IMG/VR virus record: IMGVR_UViG_2778261181_000003
Strand: one strand, 5' to 3'
Length of the DNA stretch: 25,108 nt
Source of the DNA: a virus
Taxonomy: Duplodnaviria; Heunggongvirae; Uroviricota; Caudoviricetes
Shown: positions 1,428 to 12,736 of the stretch, in pieces
Position numbering within the stretch: position 1 is the first letter of the stretch
Layout: each line of letters begins with the position of its first letter
The notes under the pieces: generated by a model
Told to the model about the DNA's origin: nothing
What the model saw: only the letters and a program-made list of their open reading frames with translations
The model's database searches: none
Made by a program: the position numbers and the translations under genes

Positions 1428-2084
1428 CTATTTAACATACTTGACTGTTAAACTTATAATTTTACCAATTATTTCAATGTCTTCTATCTTGCATTCGAAG
1501 GCTCTGTTTCCACCCTCGACGAAGATTCTTCCACCGGGTAAACGAGTAATGTCACGGATCGTTATTTCGCCATCAATACTTATTACCCATTTACCATCAC
1601 GTATATCATCAAATTCTTTATCACAAATAAATTCAGAATTGTTATCTGTGATGACAAAAGGTTTTTTAAACGTAGAGGGTAGAAATCCCTTATCAAAAAT
1701 ATAAAAACCGTCTTTCTGCAATGCTCCATCAGACAATAAATATTTTTCTACTTCTATAGTATTTGTATTTGCTGATGCTTGCTTTGAACCATGCCCTGTT
1801 GTTAGCCAATTAAGCGAGGTGCCCGTTTCAAGGGCGCACTGGATTACCCAATCTGCTGGAAAAATATCACGCATATAGCGCGTTGCCATGGTGCTCTTAG
1901 AAACACCTAAATGATCACAGAGAGCCTGACGGGTACCGAACCCATATGCTTCAACTAAACGTTCTATGGCTTTCTTACCGCCGCTATTGAAATCCACAAG
2001 TCCTCCAAAGAAATCCAAAATTCGTTGACAGATTCCAAAAGCGATCTTAAAGTTGAACCAGAAGTGTTCTTTTGGAGCCTTCAC
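1428..2084 (-). CDS. cI: Phage 186 CI-type immunity repressor (HTH DNA-binding N-terminus)
   Basis: Segment IERLVEAYGFGTRQALCDHLGVSKSTMATRY ... CALETGTSLNWLTTGHG resembles the N-terminal HTH region of 186 CI as I recall it; transcribed divergently from apl/cII toward int. True start uncertain: no in-frame ATG near the N-terminus (GTG at 2082-2084, TTG at 2016-2018 or GTG at 1995-1997 are candidates). Confidence 0.75.
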   Translation of the reverse strand: MKAPKEHFWFNFKIAFGICQRILDFFGGLVDFNSGGKKAIERLVEAYGFGTRQALCDHLGVSKSTMATRYMRDIFPADWVIQCALETGTSLNWLTTGHGSKQASANTNTIEVEKYLLSDGALQKDGFYIFDKGFLPSTFKKPFVITDNNSEFICDKEFDDIRDGKWVISIDGEITIRDITRLPGGRIFVEGGNRAFECKIEDIEIIGKIISLTVKYVK

Positions 2085-5065: not shown

Positions 5066-7476
5066 GTCATGACGATATGAGCAACTCTAGCGGCTTTAAC
5101 GAGGCTGCCGCAGCATTTTCATGGAACGGCCCGAAAAAGGCCATTAACCCTTATCTGGATCCGGCGGAAGTTGCGCCGGAGTCTGCACTTTCAAACCTGA
5201 TCACTCTGTACGCTGCCGATAACGAGCAGGAACAACTGCGCCGCGAGGCACTGAGTGAGCAGGTCTGGGAGCGTTATTTCTTTAATGAATCCCGTGATCC
5301 TGTCCAGCGCGAAATGGAGCAGGATAAGCTCATTAGCCGGGCAAAGCTGGCGCATGAGCAGCAGCGTTTTAACCCGGACATGGTCATTCTGGCAGATGTC
5401 AGCGCCCAGCCTTCTCATATCAGCAAGCCGCTGATGCAACGTATCGAATACTTCAGCAGCCTGGGCAGGCCAAAGGCTTATTCCCGCTATTTGCGTGAGA
5501 CGATTAAGCCATGTCTGGAGCGACTGGATTGTGTACGTGACAGTCAGCTATCTGTTTCTTTCCGTTTTATGGCAAGCCATCAAGGGCTGGAGGGGCTGCT
5601 GATCCTGCCTGAAATGAGCCAGGATCAGGTGAAACGCCTGTCCACCCTGGTAGCAGCGCATATGAGCATGTGTCTTGAGGCCGCTTGTGGTGATTTGTAC
5701 GCCACCGATGACGTTAAGCCAGAAGAAATCCGCAAGACATGGGAAAAGGTGGCTGCGGAAACCCTGCGTCTGGATGTTATCCCGCCTGCGTTTGAGAAAC
5801 TTCGTCGGAAAAGAAACCGCCGCAAACCTGTGCCCTATGAACTCATACCGGGTTCGCTGGCACGTATGCTTTGCGCCGACTGGTGGTATCGAAAATTGTG
5901 GAAGATGCGTTGCGAATGGCGGGAAGAGCAGTTGCGTGCTGTCTGTCTGGTCAGCAAAAAAGCATCTCCCTATGTCAGCTATGAAGCAGTGACGCATAAA
6001 CGTGAGCAGCGCCGCAAGTCGCTGGAGTTTTTCCGTTCTCATGAACTGGTGAACGAAGACGGAGACACGCTGGATATGGAAGATGTGGTAAACGCCAGCA
6101 GCAGCAACCCGGCACATCGCCGCAATGAGATGATGGCCTGCGTTAAAGGTCTGGAGCTTATCGCGGAAATGCGCGGTGACTGCGCCGTTTTCTACACCAT
6201 CACCTGTCCGTCACGTTTCCATTCCACGCTCAATAACGGCAGACCAAACCCGACCTGGACAAATGCGACGGTAAGACAAAGCAGTGATTATCTGGTCGGC
6301 ATGTTTGCTGCATTTCGTAAGGCGATGCACAAAGCCGGATTGCGGTGGTATGGCGTGCGGGTGGCTGAGCCGCATCATGACGGTACTGTGCACTGGCATC
6401 TCATGTGCTTCATGCGTAAAAAAGACCGCCGCGCCATCACTGCATTACTGCGTAAGTTTGCCATCCGTGAAGACCGCGAGGAACTGGGCAATAACACGGG
6501 GCCACGCTTTAAGTCTGAGCTGATTAACCCGCGCAAAGGAACGCCGACAAGCTACATCGCGAAATACATCAGTAAGAACATTGACGGGCGTGGTCTGGCT
6601 GGCGAGATCAGCAAGGAAACGGGTAAATCCCTGCGTGATAACGCTGAATACGTTAATGCCTGGGCGTCTCTGCATCGTGTTCAGCAATTCCGCTTCTTTG
6701 GCATTCCGGGGCGTCAGGCTTACCGTGAACTGCGATTGCTGGCTGGTCAGGCGGCAAGGCAGCAGGGTGACAAAAAAGCAGGTGCGCCGGTACTGGATGA
6801 TCCGCGTCTTGATGCCATTCTGGCTGCTGCTGATGCTGGCTGTTTTGCCACCTACATTATGAAGCAGGGCGGCGTGTTGGTTCCCCGCAAATATCACTTG
6901 ATCAGAACCGCTTATGAAATCAACGAAGAGCCGACCGCCTATGGTGATCACGGTATTCGTATTTATGGCATCTGGTCACCCATTGCAGAGGGCAAGATCT
7001 GCACTCATGCAGTGAAGTGGAAAATGGTTCGTAAGGCCGTTGACGTTCAGGAGGCGGCAGCCGACCAGGGCGCTTGCGCCCCTTGGACTCGTGGCAATAA
7101 CTGTCCCCTTGCTGAAAATTTGTACCAACAAGGGAAAGACAAATCAGCTGATGGAGATACCAGAACGGATATCACCCGTATGGATGACAAGGAGTTGCAC
7201 GATTACCTGCACAGTATGAGCAAAAAAGAGCGCCGGGAACTGGCAGCAAGGTTACGCCTGGTGAAACCGAAACGGCGTAAAGACTACAAACAGCGAATTA
7301 CAGATCATCAGCGACAGCAGCTCGTGTATGAACTGAAGTCCAGGGGATTTGATGGCAGCGAGAAAGAGGTCGATTTACTCCTTCGCGGCGGCAGTATTCC
7401 GTCAGGAGCAGGCCTGCGTATCTTCTATCGGAACCAGCGTTTGCAGGAAGATGATAAGTGGCGGAACCTGTATTAA
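5062..7476 (+). CDS. A: Replication initiation endonuclease A (rolling-circle initiator, P2 gpA-like)
   Basis: 804-aa protein with HUH-type motif ([13 protein letters not shown]) and paired-tyrosine motif ([10 protein letters not shown]) as in the phiX174 A / P2 A superfamily; position after the early genes matches P2/186. Confidence 0.85.
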
Positions 7477-7545
7477 TTACGCGGGTTAACAATTCGTGCT
7501 CTTAATAATACCAGGCATTTCTGGCTGATGAACGTAAAAAAACGT

Positions 7546-7588
7546 TTTACATCAGTAAGATTATTATATACTGTAAATATAAACAGTG
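7546..7588 (+). promoter_or_regulatory. SOS-regulated promoter: LexA box tACTGTaaatataaACAGtg (7569-7588) overlapping a sigma70-like -35 TTTACA / -10 TATACT
   Basis: CTGT-N8-ACAG with AT-rich spacer, mismatches to the consensus TACTGTATATATATACAGTA at only three positions; about 40 nt upstream of the RBS and ATG of ORF 7629. Confidence 0.65.
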
Positions 7589-7628
7589 GTTATGTATACA
7601 GTATCGCTTTGGTGTCATAGGAGGAAAG

Positions 7629-7817
7629 ATGCAGGACTATTTTTTGGAGTCTTTGAAGCTCCAGCGCATTGATTTTTTTCTTAAGCTTGTAGCGGCTAGT
7701 GAGTGTAGTGATGAAGAGAAGGGGCTGGCTCTGCAGTGGGTTTCTGAATTGACTGATGAACTCATGGCAAAAATCAGAACCCACGAATACAACCGCTCAA
7801 TGGATGTCATCAGTTGA
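7629..7817 (+). CDS. Small protein downstream of the LexA box (62 aa); possible Tum-like antirepressor N-terminal module
   Basis: Strong RBS AGGAGGAAAG before the ATG; the location after gene A and under a LexA box matches the 186 tum locus. Sequence identity to Tum not verified. Confidence 0.5.
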   Translation: MQDYFLESLKLQRIDFFLKLVAASECSDEEKGLALQWVSELTDELMAKIRTHEYNRSMDVIS

Positions 7818-7827
7818 GGTGACTTTT

Positions 7828-8061
7828 ATGCGCATTGAAATAATGATCGATAAAGAGCAGAAGATTAGCCAGTCTACCCTGGACGCCCTTGAATCCGAGC
7901 TTTACCGCAATCTGCGCCCCCTGTATCCCAAAACGGTAATTCGTATCCGCAAAGGTAGCTCTAACGGTGTGGAACTGACCGGACTGCAACTGGATGAAGA
8001 AAGAAAACAAGTGATGAAAATTATGCAGAAAGTGTGGGAAGACGACAGCTGGCTGCATTAA
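7828..8061 (+). CDS. DinI-family protein (77 aa)
   Basis: Resembles E. coli DinI in length and pattern (MRIE..., acidic C-terminus ending WEDDSWLH versus DinI ...WESADDWF); GAGGTGA RBS; same operon as the LexA-box promoter. Confidence 0.75.
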   Translation: MRIEIMIDKEQKISQSTLDALESELYRNLRPLYPKTVIRIRKGSSNGVELTGLQLDEERKQVMKIMQKVWEDDSWLH

Positions 8062-8205
8062 GAAACGTTGCCTCCAGGAGGATTCATTCTGATGGGGGCT
8101 AGTTTGGGCAACGAGTGAAACGAGGCGTAAGGTGGGCGGGCATTTTGATAAGTGATCGTCCGCTTTGTGCTAGAAGCGGTCGTTACCGCTTCAGCACTTT
8201 GTTAA

Positions 8206-10065
8206 TTAGTGAGGGCTGGTTATTACGTAGTCGCTCTGGTCATCCTCTCCCAGCCTCTCAGGTATTAAATCGTTGAAGGAAATAGTATTACTCTTAGGTT
8301 TTTCTTCAATTGGAAGTTCAGCTACCCTTAATTTGAGCGGCATGGGGCAGACGATACCACTAAAAATACAGGTTCCTGTAGATAGCGTTGGAATCGACTC
8401 TTCAGTCAGTCGATCTATATATGATACTGATTTTTCAATTGCGTACAGATCATTCTGATTAATAAGGCGATGAATAAAATAATTGTGTGCTTGGGATATG
8501 ATTGTCGACGATATATCATTAGGGCGTTGACTGGAAATTGTGATAAAAACTCCAAATTTTCTCCCCTCCTTTATGATTTCCTCAAAAGTTTCCAGACGAT
8601 AATCTCTCCAACTTTCCGTTTCCCGAAAAGAAGTATTAGACAAAATATTGTGGGCTTCATCTATAATGATGTGCAGTGTAGATTTCTCTGTAGACATTTT
8701 CTTCATATTGTAAGCCCACTTGGCTATCAAAAGAGGAAGCGTTTTTTTCATGGTTATATTAACCATATTTAGATTCACAACCGTGAAATTATGTTCACCC
8801 CAAAAGTCAGACTGTCCGGAAGTATCAAATATTTTGGCTATATCTTTACGGTTAGCACTCATTCTATTTATAACTGGTGAAATATGTTCAGGGTTAGACT
8901 TGTTAGATAAATATTCCTGTATTAACTGTAAGTACATAAAGTCCAACAGTTCTTCAATCATATCAGTTTTAAATGAAAAATTGCTTGCAAGACTGAATAG
9001 ATAGGAGCGCTCAGTATCAGCTTCTGTATTGAAAATACTACCACCCCTCAATTTCCATTTATATGCAGTTGAATGATACTCAAGATCAGATATAAGTTCT
9101 GGGTCATCTTTGAAAATTGGGCTAAGAAACTGATTTATAGTATCGCATTTGGGTTTGTCGCTACTAAAGAGATTTTGTCTGACTTTTTTCTTCAGGATAT
9201 TGCGCATAAACTCAAGAGGATTATCAGCAGTCATCACTTTCTTGCGAAACTCAAGAACTCTCTTCAGGAAAGGTTTCTGTGTTTTGTCTGTTGCATCGGT
9301 TAGAACTGAGAGCATATCATGCTCAAGTAGAACCTCTCTGGGTAGAGGAAGTTTGTCACCATTTGCATGGTGCGTGTTGAGATTATAAACCGTCTTCTCG
9401 TCAGTAATACAGCGTGGGGCAGTATATTCTCCATTAAAGTCGAATAGAATAAATTTGCATCTTTCACTAAAGTGGTTGCCGAGAATATGTTTAACTTGGG
9501 CAATACCTGCTTTGTATAGCGCGGCTAGGGTATTTGACTTTCCGCTGCCTGTATTACCGAAAATGGCAATGTGGGAATTAATAAGACCATTGATTGGTAG
9601 TGCAATTTCAATATCTTCAAGATCTGTACGAGTAAACCTCATTACAGTTTCGTCTGCATCAGCTATCTGATGAACCGTCTGTATCATCTCTTCAGTTACC
9701 ACGAAGACTTCATTGCCGATGAGAGGTAGTTCACGCGAACCACCAATGAAGCAACCAGTACGATCAATGTAACCCGTAAGAGTAGAGGTCAGGTATCGCC
9801 GATATCGCCAGGCATCACTGCCGCTCCCAGCGAGATGTTTTTCCTCAATGATTCGTTCCGCTTCAACCTTGCCGATCAGGCTCATGAAACCTTTTTTGAT
9901 CTCAATGAAGCTACCCACTGATACATTTCTTAGAACTTTTCCCTGATAAAACAAGTCACTGAGATTTTTGTTTTTATCGACCAAAATTGTCACAGCGCGT
10001 CCAGAAACCTCACAGACTTCGCCTATACGGAGCACCGCTTCCTCTTCAGTAAAATGCCTGCTCAT
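8206..10065 (-). CDS. HerA-like ATPase (FtsK/HerA superfamily), partner of SIR2 in a SIR2-HerA anti-phage system
   Basis: Walker A GNTGSGKSNT and Walker B HIIIDEAHNI in the translation; ATG at 10063-10065 overlaps the SIR2 stop (ATGA) with GGGAGG RBS; AT-rich relative to the phage backbone. Confidence 0.8.
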   Translation of the reverse strand: MSRHFTEEEAVLRIGEVCEVSGRAVTILVDKNKNLSDLFYQGKVLRNVSVGSFIEIKKGFMSLIGKVEAERIIEEKHLAGSGSDAWRYRRYLTSTLTGYIDRTGCFIGGSRELPLIGNEVFVVTEEMIQTVHQIADADETVMRFTRTDLEDIEIALPINGLINSHIAIFGNTGSGKSNTLAALYKAGIAQVKHILGNHFSERCKFILFDFNGEYTAPRCITDEKTVYNLNTHHANGDKLPLPREVLLEHDMLSVLTDATDKTQKPFLKRVLEFRKKVMTADNPLEFMRNILKKKVRQNLFSSDKPKCDTINQFLSPIFKDDPELISDLEYHSTAYKWKLRGGSIFNTEADTERSYLFSLASNFSFKTDMIEELLDFMYLQLIQEYLSNKSNPEHISPVINRMSANRKDIAKIFDTSGQSDFWGEHNFTVVNLNMVNITMKKTLPLLIAKWAYNMKKMSTEKSTLHIIIDEAHNILSNTSFRETESWRDYRLETFEEIIKEGRKFGVFITISSQRPNDISSTIISQAHNYFIHRLINQNDLYAIEKSVSYIDRLTEESIPTLSTGTCIFSGIVCPMPLKLRVAELPIEEKPKSNTISFNDLIPERLGEDDQSDYVITSPH

Positions 10066-11105
10066 CTCGAGCCTCCCAGATAGCACGTGATAATGTTATT
10101 CATTACCGGAAAATCAACATTTCTTCCCGGCCGATAAATAATCTCTACGTTTGAGTAATCCCGAAATTTCTCCATAAAGCCGTTAACACTGGCCTCATCG
10201 AAAGCAAAGATCAGTAGCTTCAGGGTGGCGTTGCGCAGGGCTTTTTTAGTTATCGTTTCAATGTGCTCATCAGCAAACGAGAACCCAAAGACAATTAGTA
10301 AAGTTGCTTCTTTATCAAGCTCGTTGGAATAGGTTCTCAGTAAATCATAATAAACGTTCTGTAGTAGAGTCTCTTTAAACTTCTCCTTACGTGGAAGAAT
10401 AAGTGCATGAGCAAGTACCCATCCTTTCATTTCGGCTAGGGTGGGAAAGTCAAGCGGCTTAATATCTGCAATACGATAAATGATTTTCCCTTTAGAATGC
10501 TGCCAAGAGAGCGAACCATGAAGTTTTATAAGGTTAACAGTAGGAAGCTCAACTTTATAATTATACAGATTTCCGGTTGCACTTACAGAATGATTAAAGC
10601 TACCCGCATCAAATTCCGCATCTCCCAAAATACTTGCTCTTCTATTGAATCCATCATTAAAAAGAATATTGTTATTACGTGTGGCAGCTTCTTCGATGAA
10701 TAAATCATAATTAGTTGTAAAAACGTTAATACGCCTCGGAAGTAGGCCAGTTCGGCGGCGGGTCAGTATCTTTTCCAGTGAAGACATAAATGCATCATAA
10801 TTTGCACGGGTACATTCCAAATCGGTGATCACCTGAGGTGCGAAGGGGGTGCCGTAGCCGCGCTTCAACATGCATTCATGAGGTAGCCAAACATCTGACA
10901 AAAAGTCAGCTGCCATCCTTAAGTATTCATCTTCCTGTTCATCATTAATAAGCTGCTGAAGATCCGTTTCGATTGTCCCCAGTACTTTAATCGCTGGGAG
11001 GGATGCACCTGATCCGATGAGAAAGTTAATGTTAGCTGACTGAAATATCCGCTCTAAGTAGTCTCGGTCACTATCGTTACCGTAGTATGCGCGCTTGACT
11101 GCCAT
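10062..11105 (-). CDS. SIR2-domain protein (predicted NADase effector) of a SIR2-HerA anti-phage system
   Basis: Translation shows glycine-rich NAD-binding loop FLIGSGAS, the SIR2 TNYD motif (VFTTNYD) and a downstream KLHGS histidine; ATG at 11103-11105 with AAGGA RBS; immediately upstream of and coupled to the HerA gene. Confidence 0.8.
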   Translation of the reverse strand: MAVKRAYYGNDSDRDYLERIFQSANINFLIGSGASLPAIKVLGTIETDLQQLINDEQEDEYLRMAADFLSDVWLPHECMLKRGYGTPFAPQVITDLECTRANYDAFMSSLEKILTRRRTGLLPRRINVFTTNYDLFIEEAATRNNNILFNDGFNRRASILGDAEFDAGSFNHSVSATGNLYNYKVELPTVNLIKLHGSLSWQHSKGKIIYRIADIKPLDFPTLAEMKGWVLAHALILPRKEKFKETLLQNVYYDLLRTYSNELDKEATLLIVFGFSFADEHIETITKKALRNATLKLLIFAFDEASVNGFMEKFRDYSNVEIIYRPGRNVDFPVMNNIITCYLGGSR

Positions 11106-11529
11106 CTTATCCTTCCACAAAACATTGGATTAGTCTGTAATTTATTTAATCTTAACGCCGAGCTCAATACTTTAACATCACTTCTTCTGGCGATTGCTAT
11201 GAGCCCTTCTTGATAAAAAGTTCGATCGGGAAACTGATCCTTTATGCCACAAGTTTTCTAGCTATCCTCAAAAAATTGGTGTTAAAACTGTGCCAACAAA
11301 GTTGCAAGGTTCGCTTCTCGCTCACAGCGAACTTTCATCTTTGTAAACCCGTATGATTCGCTTTTCAGCAGTCATTCAGATACGGATTTACGCTTCCCTT
11401 GGCAGCGCATGACTATGACGCATGAGATCGCATGATCGTTTGAGGATCGTTTTTGCTGAAGTCAGCCAGAACTGGCGTGCTTTTGCTTATGTCATGCAGG
11501 TGCATGAAAACCACTACATAAAGCGGGCA

Positions 11530-11674: not shown

Positions 11675-12736
11675 ATGCTTAAAACAAATAAGGTATTTAT
11701 TGACACACAAACGTACGTAAAGGCTGGTCTTCATTTTGAGGGGGTAGCATTTAAAGCTTTCCATGAATTATGTGCGAAAGGTGATTTAGTCTTAATTACA
11801 ACTACAGTTGTAGAGAGAGAAGTAAAAGGTAAAATAGAGGAATCAATAAAGGATGCTCTGCAGGCTATAAACACAGTACAAAGAAAAGCTAGGCTTTTGA
11901 ATAGTATTGATAATGGACCGCTCCATGGTTTTTTTCAGCAATTTAACGAACATGAAATTCACGAAGCAGCACAAAAAGTTTTTGATGATTTTTTGAAAGG
12001 ATGTCACGCCAAATTAGCTACAATAGAAGTGATAGATCTTAATGAGGTTTTAGATAAATACTTTGGCAAAGAACCACCATTTGGGCAAAATAAGAAAAAA
12101 AGTGAGTTTCCTGATGCAATCACTTTAGCTGCGGTAGAGCGATTTGTTAATGATGAAGATGTGTATATCATTTCTGAGGATAGTGACTTAAAAAATTATT
12201 GTGATGGTAAAAACAATCTTCATCAAATTGATTCACTTGATAAGTTTCTAGGTGAATACAATACGCATACAAACGAATTAAGTAATAAATTGATGCAGTT
12301 TATCGAAAGCAAACGTGAAGACATAAGAGCGGACGTAATTGCCCAACTCAATGATGCCGATGGATATAACGTTTCAACTTGGGAAGACGCTGAATTGGAT
12401 TCATTTGAAGTCGTCAATATTGATGACTTTGAACCATCAATAATTAAGATTGACAATAATTATTGTCTAGCGACCTTCTCTGTTTCTGTAGATTTTGAAG
12501 TTACTGTTTCTGGTCCAGACTTTAATAATGGGTATTGGGATAGCGAAGATAAAGTAATGATTCCAATGGAGACAACCACACGAACTGAAGTTCAAGAGAT
12601 TAGTTTCGATATTGAAATTGAAGTTATGTATGAAATCGAGGATGGTGAATTAACAGATATCGCATTTGATGTGAATATTGATAAGTTATCCCGAGGGATT
12701 GAGTTCTCTATTGAAGAAAATAATTTTGAATATTAA
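11675..12736 (+). CDS. PIN-like nuclease-domain protein with acidic C-terminal domain of unknown function (353 aa); candidate defence or abortive-infection gene
   Basis: N-terminal half has a PIN-type acidic-residue pattern (KVFIDTQTY, VVEREV, EFPDAITLAAVERF, VYIISEDSDL); C-terminal about 170 aa is D/E-rich and beta-like; very AT-rich gene with its own 550-bp upstream region and a strong downstream terminator. Confidence 0.7.
   Translation: MLKTNKVFIDTQTYVKAGLHFEGVAFKAFHELCAKGDLVLITTTVVEREVKGKIEESIKDALQAINTVQRKARLLNSIDNGPLHGFFQQFNEHEIHEAAQKVFDDFLKGCHAKLATIEVIDLNEVLDKYFGKEPPFGQNKKKSEFPDAITLAAVERFVNDEDVYIISEDSDLKNYCDGKNNLHQIDSLDKFLGEYNTHTNELSNKLMQFIESKREDIRADVIAQLNDADGYNVSTWEDAELDSFEVVNIDDFEPSIIKIDNNYCLATFSVSVDFEVTVSGPDFNNGYWDSEDKVMIPMETTTRTEVQEISFDIEIEVMYEIEDGELTDIAFDVNIDKLSRGIEFSIEENNFEY

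Follow-up and report, generated by a model that had tools for sequence, protein, structure and literature searches.

The closest described counterparts of the locus analysed here are the tum regions of the phages 186, PSP3 and Fels-2. The mechanism of 186 Tum has been described (PMC7708051). In 186, the p95-tum unit follows gene A, a LexA box lies over the -10 and the immunity repressor is the 186-type CI; the DinI-like part of the fused 146-aa Tum is also made separately from an internal GTG start, and the short Tum products carry the annotation 'modulates SOS induction' in the 186 record. According to Lemire et al. (2011), Fels-2 and PSP3 both have a tum gene interrupted by a stop codon, and in PSP3 the upstream gene of the split tum is the antirepressor (PMC3121763). 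In Fels-2, a prophage of Salmonella LT2, the counterparts of the two genes analysed here are STM2728 and STM2726.1 (STM2727 in LT2 genome numbering). In the Fels-2 operon STM2726-2728, which is responsive to the mutagen MX, STM2727 was induced 5.5- to 14.8-fold among the LexA-regulon genes (PMC2225428).

We compared with these systems a window (the whole stretch of DNA analysed, 25,108 nucleotides) that represents an E. coli prophage of the Fels-2-like kind (Peduoviridae). An earlier note had placed a LexA-controlled Tum-like/DinI-like SOS module 3' of gene A in this DNA, and the proposal was borne out: the LexA core, the ribosome-binding site (RBS), the 62-aa ORF, the junction and the DinI ORF all lay where the note had put them (Table 1), and the segment comprising the end of gpA, the operator, the 62-aa ORF and the DinI-like gene was 97.4% identical in nucleotide sequence to the locus of Salmonella phage Fels-2. 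The order after gpA (operator at 7569-7603, then the 62-aa ORF) is the layout annotated in 186 and PSP3. Thus the module very probably serves a Fels-2/186-like prophage as its SOS-induction operon, consisting of a LexA-repressed antirepressor gene and a DinI-like gene. Its SOS inducibility is predicted from the operator sequence together with the induction reported for the near-identical operon of Fels-2, while damage induction and antirepressor activity would carry over from published work on Fels-2, PSP3 and 186.

The module region was matched by 1125 of 5426 complete E. coli genomes (~21%). The prediction is of a common E. coli prophage type that would be induced by DNA damage via an antirepressor and not via repressor cleavage, which would bear on how quinolones and other SOS-inducing drugs induce prophages and on cross-talk among co-resident prophages.

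Table 1. Features of the SOS module and of the loci connected with it (positions in the window).
Feature	Position	Strand	Basis or remark
cI, 186-type immunity repressor, predicted target of the 62-aa protein	1428..1997	-	Pfam, 2FJR
Replication gene A (gpA)	ends 7476		Pfam Phage_GPA, 3.5e-128
Putative -35 hexamer TTTACA of the SOS promoter	7546..7551	+	conservation, 186 p95 analogy
LexA box 1, TACTGTAAATATAAACAGTG	7569..7588	+	overlaps putative -10 TACTGT; core CTGT-N8-ACAG at 7571-7586
LexA box 2, CAGTGGTTATGTATACAGTA	7584..7603	+	overlaps box 1; core GTGG-N8-ACAG at 7586-7601
RBS AGGAGG of the 62-aa gene	7619..7624	+	read from sequence; invariant in diverged relatives
tumA-like gene, 62 aa, predicted antirepressor of 186-type CI (helical hairpin)	7629..7817	+	
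RBS GAGGTG of the DinI-like gene	7816..7821	+	read from sequence; overlaps tumA stop codon
tumB-like gene, 77-aa DinI-family protein	7828..8061	+	Pfam DinI
Probable intrinsic terminator	8167..8203	+	13-bp interrupted hairpin, then TTTGTT

Promoter and LexA operator

The LexA boxes were judged by counting mismatches to the consensus and by comparison with shuffled sequences. The bare 16-mer core CTGT-N8-ACAG is by itself weak evidence, with 0.37 matches expected in the window and at least one found in 27 of 100 shuffles. At the level of the 20-mer, however, box 1 matched 17 of the 20 consensus positions while none of the 100 shuffles did as well, and it was kept in all relatives. The single box of the earlier note turned out to be only part of the operator, as a second, overlapping box had been missed. 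Box 2 matched 15 of 20 consensus positions, its left half-site being GTGG and not CTGT; the two 16-nt cores share one base, and together they span 31 nt (7571-7601). The exact pattern CTGT-N8-ACAGTGG-N8-ACAG had no match in 100 shuffles and occurred once per locus in 71 of the 80 loci that carry the same 62-aa gene, but in none of the 186-type loci, where a single LexA box takes the place of the overlapping pair.

A generic sigma-70 scan yielded no promoter at its threshold, the TTTACA promoter scoring below it. The hexamer itself was found in 60 of 61 unique upstream sequences and was unchanged in seven relatives down to 75% overall identity, in which the flanks diverge. Moreover TACTGT follows TTTACA at a distance of 17 nt, the arrangement annotated for 186 p95, whose -10 is likewise the TACTGT that opens its LexA box. 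Because TTTACA is conserved in every diverged relative and has this analogue in 186 p95, we infer a promoter here. Taken together, the -35, the two LexA boxes and the RBS stand out as a phylogenetic footprint when relatives with as little as 75% identity are compared.

The operator appears to consist of two overlapping LexA boxes, an arrangement typical of colicin promoters. The operators of colicins N and R are in register with the 31-nt double box (84-88% identity over ~41 nt), and the second box of colicin N shares 19 of 20 positions with box 2. At the colicin promoters the regulated gene is a bacteriocin and not an antirepressor, and the -35 region and leader differ too; the likeness is one of operator design and is not evidence of common function. 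Colicin double boxes have been reported to bind two LexA dimers, with tight repression and delayed induction (PMC2994835).

It is conceivable that only box 1 is functional, as in the single-operator promoter of 186, and that box 2 owes its conservation to something else, for instance the transcription start or the mRNA leader. Its deviation from the consensus, above all in the left half-site, would fit such a reading, as would the sufficiency of one box at 186-type loci. We consider it unlikely on several grounds: i) the register with the colicin operators and the near-identity of box 2 to the second box of colicin N; ii) the distribution of box 2 substitutions among the 61 unique sequences, which cluster in the centre and spare the half-sites; iii) the survival of the double-box pattern in relatives with diverged flanks; and iv) the two LexA dimers reported on colicin double boxes. 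Two functional LexA boxes are thus the preferred reading.

The 62-aa protein and its predicted target

The 62-aa ORF has the strong RBS that had been ascribed to it. Its product belongs to phrog_698 (E = 3.6e-38), which RefSeq and PHROGs label 'hypothetical protein', and no Pfam or NCBIfam model matched it. Whether the first ORF resembles Tum-type antirepressors had been set as the test that could refute the proposal, and the answer depended on the method. BLASTP gave no alignment of the 62-aa protein with either 186 Tum or PSP3 TumA. Profiles, on the other hand, did connect them: the protein also matched phrog_8554 (2.4e-8) and phrog_1993, to which PSP3 TumA belongs (0.0022), both of which were matched by 186 Tum and PSP3 TumA as well; residues 7-44 of 186 Tum matched phrog_698 positions 7-44 in register (2.4e-5); and hhalign of the 62-aa family against the 186 Tum N-terminal family gave E = 0.0014 over columns 3-43 on both sides, at a probability of 17%. 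Intermediates found by the 62-aa profile were matched by the Tum-N HMM at 1e-12 to 1e-5, and the alignment formed a graded continuum. With pairwise BLAST blank and the profile-profile probability at 17%, the Tum homology therefore rests on these intermediates, which support placing the 62-aa protein in one family with the N-terminal antirepressor domain of Tum (PSP3 TumA). The annotation of phrog_698 could accordingly move from 'hypothetical protein' to TumA-type antirepressor.

No relative of known structure was found for the 62-aa protein. Its AF2 model (pLDDT 89.6) has helices at residues 5-22 and 28-61, and Foldseek searches of the PDB and BFVD with this model returned generic helical hairpins only, all at E > 0.5. 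A resemblance of the model to the phage anti-activator Aqs1 was considered and set aside as not significant (E = 1.5).

The predicted target is encoded on the opposite strand. The CI of this prophage matched Pfam Phage_CI_repr (2.5e-31) and Phage_CI_C (3.4e-29) as well as the 186 CI structure 2FJR (E = 1.5e-31), while Peptidase_S24 stayed under its cut-off (16.7 vs 23.3 bits). The repressor is thus a CI of the 186 type, putatively of the non-cleavable class. Among loci with an identical 62-aa protein, CI identity ranged from 38 to 100% overall, from 65 to 100% in the N-domain and from 26 to 100% in the C-domain. The CI N-domains found here were 35-54% identical to those paired with 186-type Tum, and no CI cluster was common to Fels-2-type and 186-type TumA loci. 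Because an identical 62-aa protein is paired with CI C-domains that are only 26-100% identical, the comparison points to the CI N-terminal domain as most likely the target of the 62-aa protein. Linkage is a confounder of the match between TumA and the CI N-domain, since the backbone of these loci is near-identical throughout.

The same spread of CI sequences could be turned into the argument that one identical protein cannot be specific for such differing repressors. On this argument the operon would be SOS-controlled but the 62-aa protein would not be a CI antirepressor; it would have some other damage-related role, and induction would proceed via something else. Its 'hypothetical protein' label and a generic hairpin fold that lacks a significant structural match would agree with that. 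We regard this alternative as improbable, since the CI variability sits in the C-terminal domain while the N-domains stay alike, unlike those of the 186-type partners, since the homology to the Tum N-terminal domain is reached via intermediates, and since position, size, promoter logic and DinI partner are all shared with PSP3 tumA, a reported antirepressor. Bunny et al. (2002) also reportedly name the Fels-2 tum homologue as the cause of lexA null lethality.

With the 62-aa protein taken as a CI antirepressor, a tentative extension suggests itself, to which we give less than even credence: Fels-2-type TumA may be a 'master key' that sees the conserved CI N-domain and leaves the C-terminal oligomerisation domain free to diversify in phages that are near-identical in other respects, and the double operator may raise the damage threshold relative to 186. 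If so, one SOS-induced 62-aa protein could induce several co-resident Fels-2-like prophages that lack mixed CI oligomers, and the CI domain touched by a Tum-family protein, as well as the range of cross-induction, would be new information.

The DinI-like gene, the gene split and the downstream DNA

The DinI-family gene lies in another frame 10 nt after the first ORF, as had been proposed, with its start at 7828. Its 77-aa product matched Pfam DinI (PF06183) along the full length of the model (positions 1-63 of 63; 81.3 bits, cut-off 24.2; 6.6e-23) and the E. coli DinI structure 1GHH over residues 1-75 (E = 2.7e-6). It shared 78% identity with PSP3 TumB and 41% with the C-terminal half of 186 Tum (E = 3e-24), so that the DinI kinship of that half, put forward in the earlier note, proved right. 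In the equivalog model for the chromosomal orthologue (NCBIfam NF007893) it reached 42.7 bits against a cut-off of 111. The protein is thus best classed as a phage paralogue of the TumB type and not as chromosomal DinI; from its family membership we infer that it may bind RecA filaments and modulate the SOS response.

Two readings of the junction had been offered, a natural two-gene arrangement and a frameshifted tum. The fused 146-aa Tum of 186 is not what is found here: the first ORF ends with a TGA stop at 7815-7817, followed by a 10-nt spacer containing GAGGTG and a change of frame. The first ORF was 62 aa long in all 89 related loci, every one of which kept the split, and relatives at 75-80% nucleotide identity retained the stop codon, a purine-rich Shine-Dalgarno (SD) spacer of 10-11 nt and the ATG. 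Both ORFs are under purifying selection (dN/dS ~0.08; 0.07-0.08 for the tumA-like and 0.07-0.09 for the tumB-like gene). Moreover, in phage Cartapus tumA is near-identical (four synonymous and no non-synonymous differences) while tumB has diverged (pS 0.57), so that each gene is a recombination module of its own. None of the 86 representatives at E <= 1e-3 had the length of a fusion to DinI, whereas 78 of 81 loci of 186 type carried the fused 146-aa form. The split is thus a natural two-gene arrangement in which each gene has its own RBS. That the two ORFs are instead a fused Tum interrupted by a frameshift or nonsense mutation (a pseudogene or a sequencing error) could be argued from the single polypeptide of 186 and its relatives and from the apparently frameshifted tails of some 'stand-alone' 186-type sequences in databases, but the conserved junction, the constraint on each frame taken separately and the divergent histories of the two genes leave this reading with practically no probability, and for the phrog_698-type family it is already refuted.

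A hairpin flagged by the terminator scan at the junction (7806-7823, followed by TTTTAT) might have served as an internal terminator or in translational coupling; both readings were rejected, as its stem is not conserved in diverged relatives and its fold is unexceptional (z = -1.5; 15 of 200 shuffles folded equally well).

Beyond the module, the cargo DNA holds a probable intrinsic terminator, GUGCUAGAAGCGGU...ACCGCUUCAGCAC followed by UUUGUU, which adjoins the stop codon of the convergent HerA gene. The region 8055-8215 folded with z = -4.7, no shuffle being equally good; a simple terminator scan made no call at 8167-8203. As for the third gene of the known operons, Fels-2 STM2726 was considered as a homologue of 186 orf97 (both 243 aa), but BLASTP detected no similarity between them; STM2726 being unrelated to orf97, the third position is therefore a variable cargo slot.

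Proposed switch and comparison with known systems

We propose that in the undamaged lysogen two LexA dimers would sit on the overlapping boxes downstream of gene A, covering the -10 and the transcription start. Upon DNA damage, active RecA would bring about LexA self-cleavage and the promoter would fire, giving one transcript and two small proteins. The 62-aa helical hairpin, as a stand-alone homologue of the 186 Tum N-terminal antirepressor domain (PSP3 TumA), would bind the 186-type CI, most likely at its N-terminal DNA-binding domain; CI would leave its operators, the lytic promoter would be derepressed and the prophage induced. The 77-aa TumB-like DinI protein may in turn act on RecA filaments and tune how strong the SOS signal is or how long it lasts.

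Among more distant systems, the Gifsy-type dinI-gfoA/gftA operons are likewise LexA-repressed and combine a DinI homologue with a small antirepressor directed against a non-cleavable repressor, but their gene order is reversed (dinI first), they belong to lambdoid and not P2-like phages, and their antirepressors were likened to Tum by function and size only (Lemire et al. 2011; PMC3121763). In 186, the N-terminal domain of Tum is homologous to the 62-aa protein and its C-terminal half to the DinI-like protein; on the other hand, the domains are fused, the LexA box is single and near-perfect, the downstream gene is orf97, and the 186 CI is only ~33% identical to the CI here. PSP3 is closer in design, since tumA and tumB are also two genes after gene A behind a LexA box and TumA is of equal size and of a common superfamily, yet TumA identity is ~20%, the LexA box is single and cI is larger (861 nt) and different.

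Fels-2 is the nearest system. Its operator has two differences only, both in the centre of box 2, its 62-aa protein differs in one residue and its DinI-like protein is identical. The host is Salmonella instead of E. coli, and homology stops exactly at the DinI stop codon, after which Fels-2 continues with STM2726 while the prophage here carries a convergent SIR2-HerA system. The DNA-damage switch of Fels-2/186-like prophages had thus been described before, and studies of 186, PSP3 and Fels-2 had already established its mechanism; the present result is right but unremarkable and confirms rather than extends that knowledge, and the only new leads relative to these systems are the double LexA operator and the pairing of an invariant TumA with hypervariable CI C-domains.

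Layout and operator of the SOS module

Re-reading of the sequence confirmed the coordinates of the module proposed in the earlier note (7540-8061) and supported its central claim of a LexA-controlled Tum-like/DinI-like SOS module, which is the already known split tum operon of the Fels-2/PSP3 type, within an E. coli prophage. The present analysis adds the homology of the 62-aa family, a colicin-type double LexA operator, and an invariant TumA accompanied by a hypervariable CI C-terminal domain.

Features of the SOS module and of the associated loci in the window
Feature	Position	Strand	Basis or remark
63-aa ORF	1221-1412	minus	RefSeq hypothetical
CI repressor, 186-type helix-turn-helix and C-terminal domains	1428-1997	minus	domain matches
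cI codons 83-189, C-terminal oligomerisation domain	1431-1751	minus	
Gene A, P2/186-type replication endonuclease	3' end at 7476		Pfam Phage_GPA 3.5e-128
TTTACA, inferred -35	7546-7551		sequence reading
LexA box 1, TACTGTAAATATAAACAGTG	7569-7588		sequence reading
LexA box 2, CAGTGGTTATGTATACAGTA, overlapping box 1	7584-7603		sequence reading
RBS, AGGAGG	7619-7624		sequence reading
62-aa ORF	7629-7817		sequence reading
10-nt spacer with GAGGTG	7818-7827		sequence reading
77-aa ORF, in a frame different from the 62-aa ORF	7828-8061		sequence reading
Hairpin followed by TTTGTT	8167-8197		beside stop codon of convergent gene
SIR2-HerA anti-phage pair, convergent to the SOS operon	8206-11120	minus	PADLOC
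PIN_12-domain protein	11675-12736	plus	after SIR2-HerA, ahead of portal gene

The motif CTGT-N8-ACAG alone is not rare (0.37 expected matches; at least one match in 27 of 100 shuffles). In the 20-mer, 17 of 20 positions fit the LexA consensus, a level reached by none of 100 shuffles, and the 31-nt double-box pattern appeared in none of 100 shuffles. In an alignment of seven upstream sequences down to 75% identity (Fels-2, Cartapus, two Klebsiella phages, SopEPhi, SEN8 and the window), TTTACA, both LexA boxes, the RBS and the start codon were kept and the flanks diverged. Among the 61 unique upstream sequences from 89 loci, TTTACA was retained in 60, the exact box 1 core in 55 and the exact double-box pattern in 50, with changes concentrated in the centre of box 2, i.e., the least constrained part of a LexA site. 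At one of the 89 loci (from IMG/VR), the LexA-controlled promoter of the 62-aa gene has been lost: unrelated GC-rich sequence stands in place of the -35, of box 1 and of the left half-site of box 2, and adjoins what remains (...TATACATACAGTG).

The promoter ahead of the 62-aa gene is itself a prediction by analogy, because a generic scan found no sigma-70 promoter above threshold and TTTACA-17 nt-TACTGT scored only 8/12, while the arrangement resembles that annotated for 186 p95, whose -10 also coincides with the TACTGT that opens the LexA box.

The two proteins and the division of tum

The earlier note had left open whether the two ORFs were a frameshifted tum or a natural two-gene arrangement. 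Several lines of evidence support two genes and led us to reject a sequencing frameshift or broken tum: i) the first ORF is 62 aa long in all 89 loci of the family; ii) the stop codon, a purine-rich spacer of 10-11 nt and the ATG are kept in relatives at 75-80% nucleotide identity; iii) dN/dS against diverged relatives is low in both frames (first ORF, 0.07-0.08; second ORF, 0.07-0.09; pS reaching 0.65); iv) between Cartapus (locus L009, 1730-2162) and the window (7629-8061), tumA shows four synonymous and no non-synonymous differences, whereas tumB is strongly diverged (pS 0.57; 14.5 non-synonymous differences). Thus the two genes recombine as separate modules, with a breakpoint in or near the 10-nt spacer. 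Among 186-type loci, by contrast, 78 of 81 have the fused 146-aa form. Even so, the protein database holds many stand-alone "186-type" Tum proteins of 63-78 aa (among P0121-P0240, relatives of the 186 Tum N-terminal half), which share 74-96% identity with that half and in several cases are named "Tum protein" by NCBI; domain separation therefore occurs inside the 186-type lineage too. The tails of some of these sequences look frameshifted and may be assembly errors.

Similarity of the 62-aa protein to Tum-type antirepressors, as anticipated in the earlier note, was not apparent by BLASTP (no match to 186 Tum or PSP3 TumA), a result that by itself would have counted as a refutation in the terms of the earlier note; profiles and a graded alignment overturned it. 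Pfam and NCBIfam hold no model for the protein. It belongs to phrog_698 (3.6e-38), with further matches to phrog_8554 (2.4e-8) and phrog_1993 (0.0022); PSP3 TumA belongs to phrog_1993 (2.7e-32), and the N-terminal 70 residues of 186 Tum match phrog_1993 (2e-23), phrog_8554 (3e-12) and phrog_698 (6.7e-6), residues 7-44 pairing with profile positions 7-44. Alignment of the 62-aa and 186 Tum N-terminal families by hhalign placed columns 3-43 on 3-43 (E = 0.0014), with a match probability of only 17% owing to the shallowness of both profiles. When 1.84 billion representatives were searched with the profile, 86 proteins were recovered, nearly all of 50-100 aa and none of DinI-fusion length, whose more distant members were also matched by the HMM of the 186 Tum N-terminal family (1e-12 to 1e-5). 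The joint alignment forms a graded series with the common motif (L/E)(Q/E)R(I/V)-x-(F/L/M)-x2-(R/K)L-x5-C-x3-(D/E)(K/R)-x-(L/I)A-x2-(W/L)(I/V)(A/S)E(L/I). These profile matches and this series lead us to place the 62-aa protein in the Tum N-terminal (TumA) superfamily, as a diverged member that stands alone. Its AlphaFold2 model, of high confidence (pLDDT 89.6), is a hairpin of two helices (5-22 and 28-61) joined by a loop that bears the conserved Cys26, and fold searches with this model returned generic hairpins only.

The 77-aa protein scored 81.3 bits against Pfam DinI (cut-off 24.2), matched the E. coli DinI structure 1GHH (E = 2.7e-6) and is 78% identical to PSP3 TumB. Its 41% identity to residues 71-145 of 186 Tum (E = 3e-24) bears out the earlier note's statement that the Tum C-terminal part is DinI-related. 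Under the NCBIfam equivalog for chromosomal DinI it fell below the cut-off (42.7 vs 111); the gene, judged by these scores, is a phage paralogue and not host dinI.

The CI repressor and the variable loci

The window CI matched the 186 CI structure 2FJR (E = 1.5e-31), and its S24 peptidase match stayed under threshold, in keeping with 186 CI, a repressor inactivated by Tum and not by cleavage (PMC7708051; PMC3121763). We compared two sets of 80 viral contigs, the first with a 100%-identical 62-aa gene and the second with a 186-type Tum, and no CI cluster mixed both locus types at 90, 70 or 50% identity. In the former set, median identity to the window was 99% for CII, 97% for gpA, 97% for Apl and 100% for DinI; the CI N-terminal domain was 65-100% identical (median 83%, MAFFT alignment) and the C-terminal domain 26-100% (median 41-42%). 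Therefore one identical TumA occurs with very different CI C-terminal domains. These co-occurrence data argue against the C-terminal domain as the TumA specificity determinant and are compatible with TumA binding the DNA-binding domain at the N-terminus, as the 186 annotation "inhibits CI DNA binding" would suggest, although conservation of the entire backbone means that linkage confounds this reading.

Codons 83-189 of cI were hypervariable in 70 prophages (among L014-L093, the contigs with the 62-aa gene) on a near-identical backbone. The pattern suggests that cI contains a hotspot of recombination or diversification, which may prevent mixed CI oligomers between co-resident prophages. Between int and cI lies a 63-aa ORF with a hydrophobic N-terminus and five cysteines, found at 97-100% identity in only 27 of 80 related loci, which may encode a secreted moron product.

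On the other side of the module, the DinI stop codon marks the exact point at which homology to Fels-2 ceases. The 150 nt 3' of the DinI gene are strongly structured (z = -4.7), and the hairpin with TTTGTT is a probable terminator. The convergent gene and its neighbour form a SIR2-HerA defence pair (HerA 6e-267 and SIR2 6e-211), which together with the PIN_12 protein fills a variable slot from tumB to the portal gene. Cargo in this slot differs among Fels-2, 186, PSP3, Cartapus and Klebsiella phages; E. coli E189, identical over 7400-8200, carries an AIPR-family gene in place of the PIN gene, and Fels-2 STM2726 (locus L001, 4720-5451) and 186 orf97 (locus L004, 5605-6336), both 243 aa, share no detectable similarity. 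The third position of the SOS operon is thus a cargo slot, not a conserved gene.

Comparison with known phages and colicin operators

The window is a Fels-2-like prophage: positions 7402-8059 are 97.4% identical to Salmonella phage Fels-2. Several E. coli chromosomes are 100% identical over region 7400-8200, which was matched in 1125 of 5426 complete E. coli genomes; gene order in E189 is int, cI, apl-like gene, cII, fil, several small genes, dam and A, then the module. The Fels-2 tum homologue reportedly causes the lethality of lexA null mutations in Salmonella, according to the abstract of Bunny, Liu and Roth from 2002. The corresponding Fels-2 genes carry the annotations "hypothetical" (STM2728) and "DinI family; similar to TumB of PsP3" (STM2726.1), and PSP3 shares this layout, with tumB preceded by tumA ("similar to 5' end 186 tum; UV induction of prophage"). 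Lemire et al. describe tum as interrupted by a stop codon in both Fels-2 and PSP3, and identify the upstream gene of PSP3 as the antirepressor (PMC3121763). In contrast, 186 has one 146-aa tum downstream of the LexA-controlled p95 promoter, with nested shorter tum products annotated as modulating SOS induction. In a microarray study of Salmonella TA100 (Fels-2+), the operon STM2726-STM2727-STM2728 responded to the mutagen MX, which raised STM2727 5.5- to 14.8-fold, among the most significant LexA-regulon genes (PMC2225428).

A 51-nt query across the operator matched many small mobilisable plasmids at 84-88% identity, and in three of these plasmids, taken as examples, the match sits directly 5' of colicin R, colicin N and pore-forming colicin genes. 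The colicin operators align with that of the window in register over both boxes, and 19 of the 20 bases of box 2 are the same in the second box of colicin N. Double boxes of colicin genes are reported to be bound by two LexA dimers (PMC2994835). Of 80 loci of the window's type, 71 have a single copy of the exact double pattern ~59 nt 5' of the start codon, and the pattern is also present in Fels-2, SopEPhi, Cartapus and a Klebsiella phage; it is absent from all 80 loci of the 186 type examined, which have a single LexA box with one to three mismatches. Repression would accordingly be expected to be tighter and more cooperative than in 186, and the colicin-type double LexA operator, as read from these alignments, sets the window's lineage apart from 186.
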